A stretch of 64,000 nt of DNA from Candidatus Falkowbacteria bacterium RIFOXYC2_FULL_36_12 (GTDB lineage Bacteria; Patescibacteriota; Patescibacteriia; UBA11705). The notes under the pieces are model-generated. The model searched no databases and was not told where the DNA came from. It worked only from the letters and a program-made list of their open reading frames with translations. How positions within the stretch are numbered: the stretch's first letter is position 1; every line of letters begins with the position of its first letter. Location of the stretch: NCBI GenBank assembly GCA_001778235.1, contig MFGJ01000007.1:77085-141084 (forward strand), in the 5' to 3' direction. Positions 6,811-63,897 of the stretch are shown here, one piece after another. The position numbers were made by a program, and so were the translations under genes.

Positions 6811-6880
6811 AAAACCGCGAACCCGTTGCCTGGCAACGGGTTCGCGGAATATAACTTCACAATTGCGGGTTCGCGGTTTT
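6811..6880. terminator. Bidirectional intrinsic terminator with triplicated GC arm
   Basis: CCGCGAACCCGTTGCC-tggc-AACGGGTTCGCGG hairpin flanked by A and T tracts. A second GCGGGTTCGCGG copy is followed by T7. The element lies between convergent genes. Confidence 0.6.
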
Positions 6881-9677: not shown

Positions 9678-9685
9678 TGGATTGT

Positions 9686-9883
9686 TTATTCACTGTCTTT
9701 TTTTTCTTTGATTTTTTTTGCTATCTCGGCTAAAAGAGCCCCTGTAAATGCTTCACCTCTAAAGGCTTCACCCCTTTCTAATATCCTCTGTCCTTCAGCT
9801 AACTCTTCAGGAGTAAGATCATCAAACCCATTAATAACTCTTTCTGGTGAATTTGGATTTTCAAAATCTGGCATAATTTTCAT
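9686..9883 (-). CDS. Hypothetical small acidic protein
   Basis: 65-aa ORF flanked on both sides by the same hairpin repeat. No SD; TATAAT sits 8 nt upstream of the ATG. Confidence 0.3.
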   Translation of the reverse strand: MKIMPDFENPNSPERVINGFDDLTPEELAEGQRILERGEAFRGEAFTGALLAEIAKKIKEKKDSE

Positions 9884-9924
9884 AGTTATTTATTATAAAA
9901 ACAGTATAACACAATAATCATTAA

Positions 9925-10503: not shown

Positions 10504-10650
10504 CTACCTTTCCTCTTTTTTTATAGTGAAGGCTTTACGATCGTGAAACTCGGCTTTTTTACCCTTGTTCCAACGACCAACTGGACTCAAATAACCAACC
10601 ACTCGACTATAAACTTCACATTTTTGTCTTTGTAATTGCTCTGAAGACAT
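10504..10650 (-). CDS. 48-aa peptide resembling the NrdD C-terminal glycyl-radical motif
   Basis: The translation MSSEQLQRQKCEVYSRVVGYLSPVGRWNKGKKAEFHDRKAFTIKKEER contains an RVxGYL…NKGK…E…R pattern like the class III ribonucleotide reductase (RNR) glycyl-radical tail. No SD. The ORF falls below the cutoff of the supplied ORF track. Confidence 0.3.
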   Translation of the reverse strand: MSSEQLQRQKCEVYSRVVGYLSPVGRWNKGKKAEFHDRKAFTIKKEER

Positions 10651-10743
10651 AGGTGTAGTGTTTATTTATTTATTTTTTTAGTTTATTGGTTTATTGTGAC
10701 AAGGGTAGAAGGATAACAGAGAGAATAAGGGGTGATTTTTTTA

Positions 10744-12114: not shown

Positions 12115-12234
12115 TTTGATAAGTGAGATCAGCGAGTTAAGCAAGGCAATCAAAGTAAGTTTGCCAAATTAACTGGACTGCTCGTTTTAGGTAAAAAAAG
12201 TGTGGGCAAATTATGAAAGTACAACTTTATAATT

Positions 12235-12250
12235 CCCCACATTTCTCCAC
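12235..12250 (-). promoter_or_regulatory. Putative MraZ operator (GTGGA-N5-GTGGG direct repeats)
   Basis: The minus strand reads GTGGAGAAATGTGGGG upstream of mraZ. The 10-nt-spaced GTGG repeats resemble MraZ boxes. Confidence 0.3.
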
Positions 12251-12481
12251 TTTCTTCCTAACAATTCCATTATACTGTTATTAAATTCCACCGTCAACCA
12301 CTTTATCCACAAGAAATTTTGCCTTGTTAAAGGTAAAAAACAACAACTAAAAAAATGTAACGAATCGTTTCTGCGATGAGTTTAGAGCAACAACATGACA
12401 ATCTCTCGCAAATCGACTTGGGTTTAAAATAAAAAGAATCCGAGTGCAAACTCGAACCTTAAACTATAATCTTTTAAATTT

Positions 12482-12772
12482 TTATCTCACTAACTCATAT
12501 TCATCGCCCAAGACTTGTTGCAGAGTGGTAATAATAAATTCATCATCGCGGTAATTTTCTTTTTCCGCATAATAAATCTCGAGCCGAGTACTTCGATATG
12601 AGATGTGCCAATTTTTGCCAAGTCGTACCTCCAGTTTATGGGCTAAGTCATGGGGTACTTGTTGCACCCCGTCCAATGAAAAAACATACTCGTCTTCATG
12701 ACCAGCAATGCCATATTCAATAAAAGCTCTTGTTTTTATTTGTTCGAAATTCATGGTTTTAGAATTATACAC
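12482..12772 (-). CDS. Hypothetical protein
   Basis: 96-aa ORF. TATAAT lies immediately upstream, so the transcript is possibly leaderless. Confidence 0.5.
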   Translation of the reverse strand: MYNSKTMNFEQIKTRAFIEYGIAGHEDEYVFSLDGVQQVPHDLAHKLEVRLGKNWHISYRSTRLEIYYAEKENYRDDEFIITTLQQVLGDEYELVR

Positions 12773-12949
12773 TGAAATAACCTGCCTTTCGGCAGACGGG
12801 ATTATTTGTCATATTAAGCTTGAAAGCTTCGCAGAGTACCCCCGGATCAAGTCCGGGGCATGCTTTAAGACAGGCTCTGTAAGCAGGTAAAGAAGAATTA
12901 TACCCTGAAATCCATCTTCGTTAAAACTTCGATGGACAAGCAAATTCAG

Positions 12950-13056
12950 GGTGACAAGTGTGAGGTGGTGACAAGTGTGAGGTGGTGACAAGTGCGAGGT
13001 GGTGACAAGTGCGAGGTGGTGACAAGTGATTGATGGTGACAAGTGGGGTTATTTTT
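12950..13056. repeat. Tandem array of about 6 copies of the 17-bp unit GGTGACAAGTGYGAGGT
   Basis: Directly visible. Copies are contiguous with no spacers. The array lies between tsaB and the downstream ORF. Confidence 0.9.
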
Positions 13057-13477
13057 TACTTTTGGTAATATTAGGTTTTTTGCCATATTCAGGAATAGCG
13101 ATCTGCTTGAACGAATTGTTGGTTGTCTTTTTGGAGACTTTCAGACCATCGGACCAAACCTTTTCCATTTTTTGTTTTTCCTCAAGTCCTAAATAGATTT
13201 TTTTTAATTTAATCCCATAAACCGGAATATCTAAACCATAAGCCAAAGCATTAGCAGTAGCACAACCAATACGCAAGGCTGAAAAATCACCAGGGCCAAT
13301 CACCACAAATATTTTTTCCAACCCTGACAAATCAGCTGAAATAATCTGTTTGATTTCTTTTAACAATAGCTCCGACTGCTTGAAAGCCTGATTAATGGTT
13401 TTCATTTTTGTAATATTCTCTTGTCCAATTGCAATAGAAAAACAAGAATTTGACTCTGTTGATATAAGTAAATTCAT
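13049..13477 (-). CDS. tsaB: tRNA t6A biosynthesis protein TsaB (short form)
   Basis: LISTESNSCFSIAIG … VVIGPGDFSALRIGCATANALAYGLDIPVYG matches the TsaB/YeaZ N-domain. Start taken at MNLL. Confidence 0.65.
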   Translation of the reverse strand: MNLLISTESNSCFSIAIGQENITKMKTINQAFKQSELLLKEIKQIISADLSGLEKIFVVIGPGDFSALRIGCATANALAYGLDIPVYGIKLKKIYLGLEEKQKMEKVWSDGLKVSKKTTNNSFKQIAIPEYGKKPNITKSKK

Positions 13478-62407: not shown

Positions 62408-63373
62408 TTAACTAAGTTGTTTTAAGGTTTTTTTTACATCAGACAAGTTTTCAACTCTGACAAGTTTTGCTCGCCAATCACTAGCACCAGGAAAACCCTT
62501 CAGATACCAACAGAGATGTTTGCGGATTTCTAAAAAAGCTTTATCGTTTTTTGATTTTGATAATAGTTTTGCATGCTTTAGTGCAACTTTTTTTATTTGT
62601 TCTAGATCGAATTCAGAATATTTTCCGTTTTGAAGATAATCATTGATTTGTTTGAATAGCCATGGCTTGCCGTATAGTCCTCTAGCTAAACCAACGCCGT
62701 CAACGCCTGTTTTGTCGAGCATTTCCTTGATGTCTTCGGGTGTATTTAAACCTCCATTGCCCAAAACAACACCCTTGAATTTTTCTTTGGCCAGCTTGAT
62801 GGAATCAAAATCAATTGAACCGCTGAAACCCTGTTCATAAGTTCGGCCATGAAGCATCAGAGCTGAAACATTGTAATCTTTTATTTTGTCGAGAAAATCA
62901 AAAACCGTGATTTTTCCAGTTTGATCTTTTTTGTTAATTGAAATTCTGGTTTTTATTGATACTGGGATTGAAGCAGATTCAACTGTTGCATGGACTATTT
63001 CTTGTGCTAAATTCAAATCCCGAAGTAAAGTTATTCCGCCTTCATGAGCCACAACTTTTTTGGCTGGACAGCCAAAGTTTATATCAATGCCGTCAAAACC
63101 AGCTTCTTCTACTCGTTCAACTGCTTTTTTAATTAGCTCTGGTCTTTTGCCGAAAAGTTGTAGTACAACTTTACCTTCTTTCTTATGATTAAAATCAAGT
63201 AGCTCAAGTGTTGTTTTCCCTTTATAATACAAGCCATCAATTGAAGTCATTTCAGTGTAAACAACATCTGCACCAAAGCTATAACACAACTGGCGAAAAG
63301 CTGAATCTGAAATTCCTGCCATGGGGGCTAGGGCGAGGATCGGTTTGTTGAATTTGTTCCAGAAATTGGACAT
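62408..63373 (-). CDS. tRNA-dihydrouridine synthase (DusB-like)
   Basis: LAPMAGISDSAFR N-terminus. TIM-barrel flavoenzyme motifs. Confidence 0.85.
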   Translation of the reverse strand: MSNFWNKFNKPILALAPMAGISDSAFRQLCYSFGADVVYTEMTSIDGLYYKGKTTLELLDFNHKKEGKVVLQLFGKRPELIKKAVERVEEAGFDGIDINFGCPAKKVVAHEGGITLLRDLNLAQEIVHATVESASIPVSIKTRISINKKDQTGKITVFDFLDKIKDYNVSALMLHGRTYEQGFSGSIDFDSIKLAKEKFKGVVLGNGGLNTPEDIKEMLDKTGVDGVGLARGLYGKPWLFKQINDYLQNGKYSEFDLEQIKKVALKHAKLLSKSKNDKAFLEIRKHLCWYLKGFPGASDWRAKLVRVENLSDVKKTLKQLS

Positions 63374-63423
63374 ATAGTTGATAGTTGATAGATTATAGTT
63401 GAAAGTACTTAAATGATAATATT

Positions 63424-63795
63424 CTAACTGTCTGATTTGTTTTTCTTTTTCAATATTGATAAATTAAGACTATAGAGCATCCTACCACATTCATCATATT
63501 GATCCAAAAAATAGTTTAGGCGTTCTTTTTCTAAATAACTTTTACGATGAGCAATCTTCAAATGATGAACAGTTTCCCGTATTTCACCCTGGGCTCTAGA
63601 AATAGATATTGAATAGATTTTCGTATATTTATTACCAAATCCTTCCGCTAAATTTGCAGGTGCTGAATTAGATGACCTTCTAAGCTGTGAACCTATTTCG
63701 TAAAGTTCATATTTGGGAAATTCTAATGTCAAATAATGAATTTCTATAGCCAAATTGAATAATTTATTGTAGACAATCAAATCATCAACCTTCAT
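63424..63795 (-). CDS. Four-helix-bundle protein (23S rRNA intervening-sequence protein family)
   Basis: Same family pattern as 37515-37886 (…FP..E.Y.IGSQLRRSSNS…NLAEG…). Confidence 0.7.
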   Translation of the reverse strand: MKVDDLIVYNKLFNLAIEIHYLTLEFPKYELYEIGSQLRRSSNSAPANLAEGFGNKYTKIYSISISRAQGEIRETVHHLKIAHRKSYLEKERLNYFLDQYDECGRMLYSLNLSILKKKNKSDS

Positions 63796-63897
63796 ATTAC
63801 TCTAATTTTTCAATATTTTTTATACTATAATCTATTTACTATAATCTATACTCTTCTCATAAATTATACCTAATTTTCGCTTATTTTTCAACCAATA

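Follow-up and report, generated by a model that had tools for sequence, protein, structure and literature searches.

The 64,000-nt stretch of contig MFGJ01000007.1 analysed here (the window), from Candidatus Falkowbacteria bacterium RIFOXYC2_FULL_36_12, carries a 17-bp tandem array in the spacer between tsaB and a small open reading frame (ORF) of 90 codons, here called ORF90. All the genes around the array lie on the minus strand, where they follow each other in the order YkuD-type L,D-transpeptidase gene, tsaB, a spacer of 294 nt (13048..12755), ORF90, a terminator-like hairpin, mraZ and rsmH (Table 1). The TsaB protein is identical to that of Candidatus Falkowbacteria bacterium RIFOXYD2_FULL_35_9, and the organism belongs to the Candidate Phyla Radiation (CPR; Patescibacteria) of groundwater. 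The loci other than the window that were used for comparison are named L001, L002, L008, L010, L012, L013, L015, L135, L136, L137, L142, L152 and L153.

As proposed in the initial annotation, the array consists of about six copies of a 17-bp unit and starts at the tsaB stop codon, precisely 3 nt past it. Tandem Repeats Finder described it with a period of 17, 5.6 copies, 93% matches, zero indels and a score of 150, and it is the sole strong array in the 64 kb, the runner-up scoring 58. Its core CACTTGTCACC occurs six times in the window, always in the array, against 0.54 occurrences expected from shuffled sequences. The linkers between successive cores are, in the 5' to 3' direction of the minus strand, ATCAAT, ACCTCG, ACCTCG, ACCTCA and ACCTCA. 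Variant linkers are thus paired side by side (G,G,A,A), and divergence is greatest in the outermost unit. The last core runs directly into the palindrome of a promoter-like site, P1. The array lies in non-coding DNA, between the tsaB stop and the ORF start, and since its period of 17 is not a multiple of three it cannot be coding. On the transcribed strand it is 45% C and 8% G (43 C and 8 G in 96 nt), a greater excess of C over G than in any other tract of the window's gene strand (C minus G of 31 in 80 nt, compared with a mean of -2.6 and a standard deviation of 5.8). Of the other 80-nt tracts of that strand in the window, only two are strongly C-rich and G-poor, both intergenic and on the minus strand: 10655-10734, which follows rsmH, and 63323-63402, which corresponds to a 7-nt repeat in 4.7 copies (ATAGTTG on the plus strand, 63374-63406). 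A scan of 596 Gb of genome contigs with the 17-mer TTTCAGKGTATAATTCT returned 118 matches in unrelated taxa, which is chance level for a pattern that is too short.

Table 1. Features at the tsaB-ORF90 locus (positions in the window)
Feature	Position	Strand	Description and evidence
tsaB	13049..13477	-	142 aa from the ATG at 13477; stop TAA 13051..13049; Pfam TsaD and NCBIfam TsaB matches
17-bp tandem array	12950..13045	-	6 cores CACTTGTCACC with 6-nt linkers; Tandem Repeats Finder, repeat finder family D1
'P' module hairpin	12903..12951	-	Outer CCCTGAA.../...TTCAGGG, inner TCCATC/GATGGA; inverted-repeat scan, minimum free energy (MFE) folds, module alignments
Promoter-like site P1	12897..12924	-	TTAACG-16-TATAAT, 10/12 consensus positions (promoter scan)
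18-nt block, copy 1	12894..12911	-	ATTTCAGGGTATAATTCT; conserved module 3' end
Hairpin CCCCGGA-CTTGA-TCCGGGG	12840..12858	-	7-bp stem with 6 G-C pairs; no relative found for this part of the spacer
Predicted outer stem TACTCTG (12838..12832) / CAGTGTA (12774..12768)	12768..12838	-	MFE fold; encloses two small hairpins
Hairpin AAGCT-TTCA-AGCTT	12816..12829	-	Sequence and folds
Hairpin GTCTGCC-GAAA-GGCAGGT	12780..12797	-	CTGCC-GAAA-GGCAG core at 12782-12795
18-nt block, copy 2 (P2)	12761..12778	-	ATTTCAGTGTATAATTCT; TATAAT 12769..12764, 9 nt before the ATG; no -35-like hexamer
ORF90	12482..12754	-	Gene of an uncharacterised small-protein family
Intrinsic-terminator-like hairpin and T run	12437..12458	-	3' of ORF90

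Copy number of the array

The array has six units in ten independent assemblies, three of which are NCBI genome bins, and five units in two others, where one ACCTCG unit has been lost. The five-unit locus L001 differs from the window by a single 17-nt gap, with 0 substitutions over 10,273 nt, and the locus L002 (GCA_001780315.1) is 100% identical to the window over 10 kb. The array is thus a head-to-tail, non-coding unit whose number differs between close strains, as in variable-number tandem repeats, and this polymorphism, the paired variant linkers and the degenerate edge unit are together the behaviour expected of a slippage-driven repeat of that kind. The initial annotation had taken free variation in copy number among strains as the mark of a neutral minisatellite; five and six units do occur in otherwise identical strains, but the distribution of the six-unit allele does not amount to free variation.

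Several contigs stop within the array or module, or right next to one of them. The contig L010 (ENA ERZ909575, 1003 nt) joins a major facilitator superfamily (MFS) transporter locus of the L137 type, described below, to the ORF90 locus of the window through a common 74-nt module. We considered it as a one-unit allele in another gene context and rejected this, since it is best read as a chimera or recombinant, most likely an assembly chimera. Elsewhere in the window, L008 / L142 (Logan SRR4389122) lacks about 245 nt of positions 9679-9923, a population indel polymorphism.

The spacer in other Falkowbacteria

The nearest TsaB homologues are about 50% identical. In three loci of Falkowbacteria, L012, L013 and L015, the YkuD gene, tsaB and the small ORF follow each other as in the window, and mraZ and rsmH come after a variable stretch; the gap between tsaB and the ORF there measures 91, 13 and 6 nt, respectively, compared with the 294 nt of the window. 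Neither the array nor the hairpins were found in these gaps, and the profile of the hairpin modules described below found no copy in the three loci. The short gaps in the three relatives indicate that the 294-nt spacer is an insertion specific to the lineage. As the whole spacer is absent from them, neither conservation nor covariation can be demonstrated for it. The same applies to the core of the spacer at 12800-12890, which contains the CCCCGGA and AAGCTT hairpins: on either strand the related loci gave only 9-nt chance matches, and hence no homologue in which compensatory base changes could appear.

Hairpins and promoter-like sites of the spacer

The three hairpins listed in the initial annotation are all present, in the roughly 115 nt between P1 and the second copy of an 18-nt block. 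The largest of the spacer was not among them: it spans 49 nt, its 5' flank is the last array core and its 3' arm abuts the -10 box of P1. Also new with respect to that annotation are P1 itself, a duplicated 18-nt block and the membership of the region in a family of modules. P1 is the best promoter-like site in the spacer, and its TATAA box is invariant in all 10 module copies aligned. The 18-nt block, ATTTCAGKGTATAATTCT, matches twice in the window, against 0.18 matches expected; its second copy supplies P2, whose TATAAT lies so close to the start codon of ORF90 that the mRNA is probably leaderless, as had been suspected. The ORF itself had been read as 96 aa from a GTG; its homologues align from residue 4, which places the start at the ATG at 12754 and gives 90 aa.

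The description of the region as GC-rich is right in relative terms, the array having 54% GC and the remaining spacer 41-47%, compared with 35% for the window. Counting GC-rich perfect hairpins, the spacer ranks in the top 4% of windows of the same size. Whether it is structured depends on the part considered. A 201-nt stretch folds at z = -3.2 compared with shuffled sequences, on either strand, with the big hairpin and the CCCCGGA hairpin contributing most of the signal; the piece downstream of P1 reaches only z = -1.8, with 9 of 200 shuffles folding equally well, and the array with the big hairpin z = -0.3, as no structure is predicted for the array RNA. Rfam gave nothing at the gathering score in the 64 kb, and within 12400-13200 at E<10 only one chance match of 13.7 bits. 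Hairpins nearly identical to the last one of the spacer, CTGCC-GACA-GGCAG, are nested in CTGAA/TTCAG palindromes at L137:9642-9655 and L137:8063-8076. The predicted outer stem at 12768..12838 may correspond, by weak homology, to a ACTCTGAAAC...GTTCAGAGT hairpin seen at L137 and L135.

TATAAT boxes 2-9 nt before the ATG are found at other genes of the genome, which suggests that leaderless mRNAs are frequent in it. Boxes of the form GTATAAT at this distance lie at 63869, 33828, 25815 and 23699 of the window (minus strand). At the other end of the transcription unit, tsaB lacks a canonical intrinsic terminator, whereas other genes of the window have one. The hairpin after tgt (6815-6847, minus strand) is a perfect 15-bp GC-rich stem, CCGCGAACCCGTTGC-CAG-GCAACGGGTTCGCGG, followed by TTTTT; it is a textbook intrinsic terminator, so that terminators of this kind are in use in the organism.

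The spacer is built from a family of hairpin-promoter modules

The comparison of the related sequences defined a module with three parts. At the 5' edge stands C-C-T-C-N-CAYTTGTCACC, followed by a CTGAA...TTCAG palindrome and by a 3' block, TTTCAGGGTATAA, which supplies the -10 box. The stretch TTTCAG(G/T)GTATAA is invariant in 10 module copies (alignment A2). The window contains two copies, at 12885-12965 and 12752-12800, and the motifs occur nowhere else in it. A third cluster, with three modules, lies about 4.2-4.7 kb beyond coordinate 64000 on the window's own contig, which is also available as a 320-kb sequence (ENA ERZ909580; L153 is a 10-kb extension of the window along it); 10 kb on the opposite side of the window contained none. 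The part of the source genome scanned for modules thus comprises about 84 kb, in which two loci were seen, and the presence of both clusters on one contig means that the family is multi-copy within the genome. The modules of the third cluster (TTTCAGGGTATAAA) occupy the 527-nt spacer between dnaK and rlmE (L153:4646-5172), and the last of them, which has the 18-nt block of P2, ends 8 nt before the rlmE ATG. This spacer also has a CCTGAAGTAATTTCAGG hairpin after the dnaK stop, and a C-rich 26-nt repeat in 1.9 copies at the position equivalent to that of the array. A GGGGCTTGCCTGCCGTAATCTTGATGAAGGCAGGTCTGGGG module is present in it, and twice in L135.

Scanning metagenomes with the hairpin-promoter pattern retrieved two further loci, L136 and L135. 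L136 shows no difference from the corresponding part of L137, a contig of 108 kb, whose three modules lie in the 645 nt that separate an MFS transporter gene from ksgA (L137:9356-10000). Two small GTCACCCCTGAACTAAATTCAGGGCAGGCT hairpins, a 21-bp array in five copies and a 12-bp duplication were also seen there, and a 17-nt direct repeat, ATAATTAGATKTTSTCA, flanks the whole composite of 563 nt. In L135 two modules form a cluster after a DUF378-type gene, the family being judged by eye from the translation. They sit in about 700 nt of non-coding DNA between convergent genes (L135:9450-10170, minus strand), facing a 450-nt stretch of hairpins and an 11-nt repeat in three copies, CCTGCCTGCCG. Neither L135 nor L136 gave a relevant Rfam match at permissive E-values; the 450-nt stretch of L135 could be a non-coding RNA driven by the modules. 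Scans of viral contigs with the module patterns gave no match.

The P1 module differs from an L137 copy at 1 of 68 positions; compared by eye with an L153 copy, with which it has roughly 52 nt in common, it differs at one position. Most copies have the CTGAA...TTCAG stem, one copy, L153_Pb, being without the 5' arm, and the two halves of the palindrome are set apart by inserts of 3 to about 70 nt. The loop is empty in the compact copies of L135 and L153; in others it is occupied by an inner hairpin of either of two unrelated types (TCCATC.../...GATGGA or TGCACT.../...AGTGCG) or by larger inserts (L137:9850-9955), and one module loop of L137 contains the 12-bp duplication, of ACTTGTCCRTCG. The modules therefore have two of the features that define modular intergenic repeats, namely several intergenic copies per genome and palindromic, hairpin-forming units.

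The array of the window derives its unit from this module. Every module has a single CAYTTGTCACC directly before the palindrome, preceded by the C-rich CCTCN, and the array unit, ACCTCR plus CACTTGTCACC, is this 5' edge. At L137 the homologous edge forms the 21-bp array in five copies, CACTCGTCATCCTGAACACTA. C-rich, G-poor tracts are found just upstream of other modules, at L153:4779-4858 (33 C, 6 G), at L137:9673-9752 (the 21-bp array; 32 C, 7 G) and at L137:8084-8197.

The modules are oriented toward the downstream gene, and two of them end 8-9 nt before its ATG (ORF90 and rlmE), which fits a leaderless mRNA. We considered sigma-54 and extracytoplasmic function (ECF) sigma promoters as readings of the module and rejected both, the spacing being unsuitable (by eye). 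Long direct repeats at the flanks, of 18 nt in the window and 17 nt in L137, overlap module sequence in both cases. No transposase was seen in the sequence examined, and the search for terminal inverted repeats around the insertion returned one 8-nt pair, at chance level.

Neighbouring genes and other features of the window

ORF90 belongs to a protein family for which an HMMER search found 35 cluster representatives among 1.84 billion proteins (alignment A1), with the motif GH-E.EYV ... LG..W.V.NRGTRLEI ... RDD. It lies directly downstream of tsaB in L012 and L015, and its product is 48% identical to that of the syntenic ORF of L012 (E = 1e-28). ORF90 is a real gene. The AlphaFold2 model of the product has a pLDDT of 95 and a small alpha/beta fold (beta-beta-alpha-beta-beta-alpha-beta), with no significant match in the PDB and no recognisable DNA-binding fold in the predicted model; it also matched no Pfam family.

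Further downstream, the mraZ promoter TTGACG-17-TATAAT lies at 12297..12269, with a perfect DnaA box, TTATCCACA (12303-12311), just upstream of it and MraZ-type boxes, GTGGAGAAAT GTGGGGAATT (12250..12231), just downstream. DnaA boxes precede mraZ in L013 and L015 too. A 48-aa ORF with a match to the NrdD (glycyl-radical) Pfam family follows rsmH (10504-10650, minus strand), an arrangement repeated in the other Falkowbacteria loci compared, and a 50-aa paralogue follows nrdD at L137:992-1144; these small ORFs may be GrcA-like spare glycyl-radical parts. Small proteins with 23S_rRNA_IVP / bAvd Pfam matches are encoded at 63424-63795 of the window (minus strand) and at L152:15355-15747, one of them next to LexA and Y-family polymerase genes; this family is that of the accessory protein of diversity-generating retroelements. 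No tRNA or tmRNA was found in the window.

Discussion

With moderate confidence, we favour the explanation that the array is a variable repeat born of slippage, inside a lineage-specific composite of hairpin modules that would bear promoters, and that its own sequence probably serves no specific function. Replication slippage would have amplified the 5' edge of one module head to tail. In the relatives tsaB lies next to the small ORF, and the two are probably transcribed together; here the inserted element would separate them, transcription of tsaB would end in the region of the array and hairpin, and the ORF would now be expressed from the promoters of the element, P1 and P2. P2 would produce a nearly leaderless mRNA, and P1 either a structured leader of about 135 nt or a short RNA ending at the CTGCC hairpin.

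Several observations weigh against this explanation. The six-unit allele recurs in several samples, so that the array is not freely varying. The same motif gave rise to an array at each of two loci, independently, which could mean selection for many copies and not mutational bias. Promoter-like matches in the region number 4, against 3.8 expected from shuffles, and being no commoner than that they leave conservation, orientation and the distance to start codons as the only grounds for promoter activity. The modules of L135 face a non-coding stretch, not a gene. The core of about 90 nt (about 12800-12890), which has no relative anywhere, could be a functional RNA. Finally, L137 and L135 may be either from the source genome or from co-occurring relatives: they share no orthologous genes that could place them, and the KsgA of L137 is on a single contig of the Joint Genome Institute (JGI), compared with 9 to 24 contigs from several public sources for each window protein looked up.

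The initial annotation saw in the spacer a regulatory region, as which a non-coding, regulatory-looking stretch before a real gene may still be described, but its two specific proposals, a regulator-binding array and a small or cis-regulatory RNA, were not supported. For the former, the array would be an iterated DNA site for a regulator that recognizes CACTTGTCACC and acts on P1 or blocks read-through. Its best argument is the independent amplification at two loci: the 11-nt motif that heads every module has been multiplied with different linkers (17 and 21 bp), so that the motif and not the spacing is conserved, and in the window the nearest unit is about 55 nt upstream of the P1 -10 box. 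The same difference in period between the two homologous arrays means that helical phasing is not conserved, and no candidate protein was found; the neighbouring genes of 223 and 709 aa are conserved in relatives without the array and the ORF90 product has no suitable predicted fold. The MraZ operator lies elsewhere; the array itself was tried as such an operator and discarded, the canonical boxes (GTGGG-type, 10-bp period) being at the mraZ promoter, 700 nt away, and unlike the array unit. Moreover, one unit has been lost in nature, and the variable inserts in the palindromes suit single-stranded hairpins better than a protein dimer on duplex DNA. We regard a binding array as quite improbable. 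Slightly less so, though still improbable, is a small RNA or cis-regulatory leader of ORF90 reaching from P1 to the CTGCC hairpin (about 12890..12780). The rank of P1 as the best promoter-like site of the spacer, the three to four hairpins in the 110 nt downstream of it, the last of which precedes a U-rich run in the manner of a weak terminator, and the fixation of the spacer in 12 of 12 assemblies argue for it. This RNA has no Rfam match, its fold is hardly better than that of shuffles, its core lacks the homologues from which covariation could be read, and the spacer is absent from three relatives that have the flanking genes, the same ORF among them. A rut (Rho utilization) site in the tsaB 3' untranslated region is unlikely too, if a little less so than the foregoing: the array RNA, C-rich, G-poor and unstructured, would load Rho, the module hairpin would serve as the pause, and the promoters would be insulated from read-through, composition and length mattering and not the exact unit. 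The RNA has the sequence features of such terminators: over 80 nt or more it is rich in C, poor in G and predicted to lack structure, and a strong hairpin comes directly after. The tract begins just past the stop of a gene that lacks the usual terminator, and the similar tracts ahead of the modules of L153 and L137 also agree with this reading. No rho signature was detected in the roughly 140 kb of Falkowbacteria sequence examined, and our literature search found no paper on Rho in CPR bacteria; the C-richness of both arrays may be inherited from one common module edge, and the relatives manage with gaps of 6-91 nt and no such tract.

Readings taken from other repeat systems have less in their favour. 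TIGR (tandem interspaced guide RNA) arrays, which occur in CPR bacteria, have two alternating repeats of 8-12 nt with a UG...CCA motif, variable 9-nt spacers and a Nop-domain tas gene (PMC12045711). In the window, TGTCACCA begins with UG and ends with CCA in units 1-5, the sum of 8 and 9 gives 17, half of the 34-nt TIGR unit, and a hairpin follows the array; an antitoxin RNA of type III, similar to ToxI, was considered along with this reading. The stretches that would act as spacers hardly differ (TCAATCACT, CCTCGCACT twice and CCTCACACT twice), there is a single repeat type without alternating edge and loop repeats, no Nop-domain gene was found within about 10 kb, and the homologous 21-bp array of L137 has no UG...CCA. 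For ToxI, the downstream ORF of 90 aa is unlike ToxN, belongs to no Pfam family and is present in relatives without the repeats; type III toxin-antitoxin systems were discarded, as no ToxN-, CptN- or TenpN-type gene lies directly downstream of the array. We hold a TIGR or ToxI-like array to be very improbable, and even more so an array of iterons from a replication origin or integrated replicon. Direct repeats of 17-22 bp in 5-7 copies are typical of iterons. The array lies within a conserved chromosomal order of housekeeping genes, and no rep gene accompanies it. DnaA boxes form no cluster (the 64 kb contain 27 near-matches versus 21 expected, the single perfect box being 640 nt away), there is no switch of gene strand or inflection of GC skew, and the viral contigs were blank.

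The locus gives no evidence of a new RNA class or a new regulatory mechanism, and its closest analogues are known elements. The BOX elements of Streptococcus pneumoniae consist of boxA, boxB repeated n times and boxC, with a boxB unit of about 45 bp. Like them, the modules are modular intergenic hairpin repeats near genes, with a sub-module in variable head-to-tail number and several loci per genome; unlike them, they have units of 17-21 bp and a -10 box aimed at the downstream gene, and there is no sequence similarity. Correia elements of Neisseria are promoter-bearing miniature inverted-repeat elements, and Matus-Garcia, Nijveen and van Passel are said to have described 'putative mobile promoters' in 2012. 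The modules share with these their short, palindromic, intergenic nature, the putative outward-facing promoters that they would carry to unrelated genes, and the near-identical copies before non-homologous genes, here ORF90, rlmE and ksgA. Terminal inverted repeats with a target-site duplication could not be defined for them, no transposase was found in the sequence examined, and nested growth inside the hairpin loops is a prominent difference. With the repetitive extragenic palindromic (REP) sequences, and the bacterial interspersed mosaic elements (BIMEs) and REPINs, they have in common the clustering of extragenic palindromes in spacers after stop codons and a hairpin form that seems conserved; in contrast with REP sequences they have no GTAG-type head, the sequence examined showed no gene for a RAYT (REP-associated tyrosine transposase), and the strongest conservation is in the promoter-like block and not in the stem. 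The array behaves as the variable-number repeats used in multiple-locus variable-number tandem-repeat analysis (MLVA), with unit numbers that differ between otherwise identical strains, variants in adjacent blocks and a degenerate edge unit, but its unit, unlike that of ordinary repeats, is recognisable as the edge of a promoter module that is itself repeated. By the RhoTermPredict criteria it resembles Rho-dependent terminators in providing about 100 nt of C-rich, G-poor unstructured RNA after a stop and then a hairpin, although real rut sites are not known to be tandem repeats. TIGR arrays (PMC12045711) share short-period repeats in CPR bacteria, the UG...CCA motif and a hairpin after the array, and differ from it in that here the would-be spacers are invariant, the repeat is of a single type, there is no tas gene and only 2.8 TIGR-unit equivalents are present.

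We give a rather small chance to a bolder version of the explanation that we favour, in which the modules would be an undescribed mobile promoter element that spreads both within and between co-occurring Falkowbacteria and grows by hairpin nesting, the C-rich arrays being selected as part of a terminator-insulator-promoter cassette that works with Rho or with a dedicated protein.

CPR genomes are small and tightly packed, and to our knowledge little is known about their promoters, terminators and repeat elements. The locus defines a putative promoter module, the 3' block that follows a CTGAA/TTCAG palindrome, which appears to be reused before unrelated housekeeping genes (ORF90, rlmE and ksgA), can apparently enter between formerly adjacent genes and sprouts variable tandem arrays. 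The module may help the annotation of transcription units in uncultured CPR bacteria, and the copy number of the repeat may serve as a strain marker in aquifer time series. It is also a warning for assemblers, as contigs break or turn chimeric at the module. If the mobile-promoter cassette were real, the number of units would serve to adjust how neighbouring transcription units of a streamlined CPR genome are kept apart.

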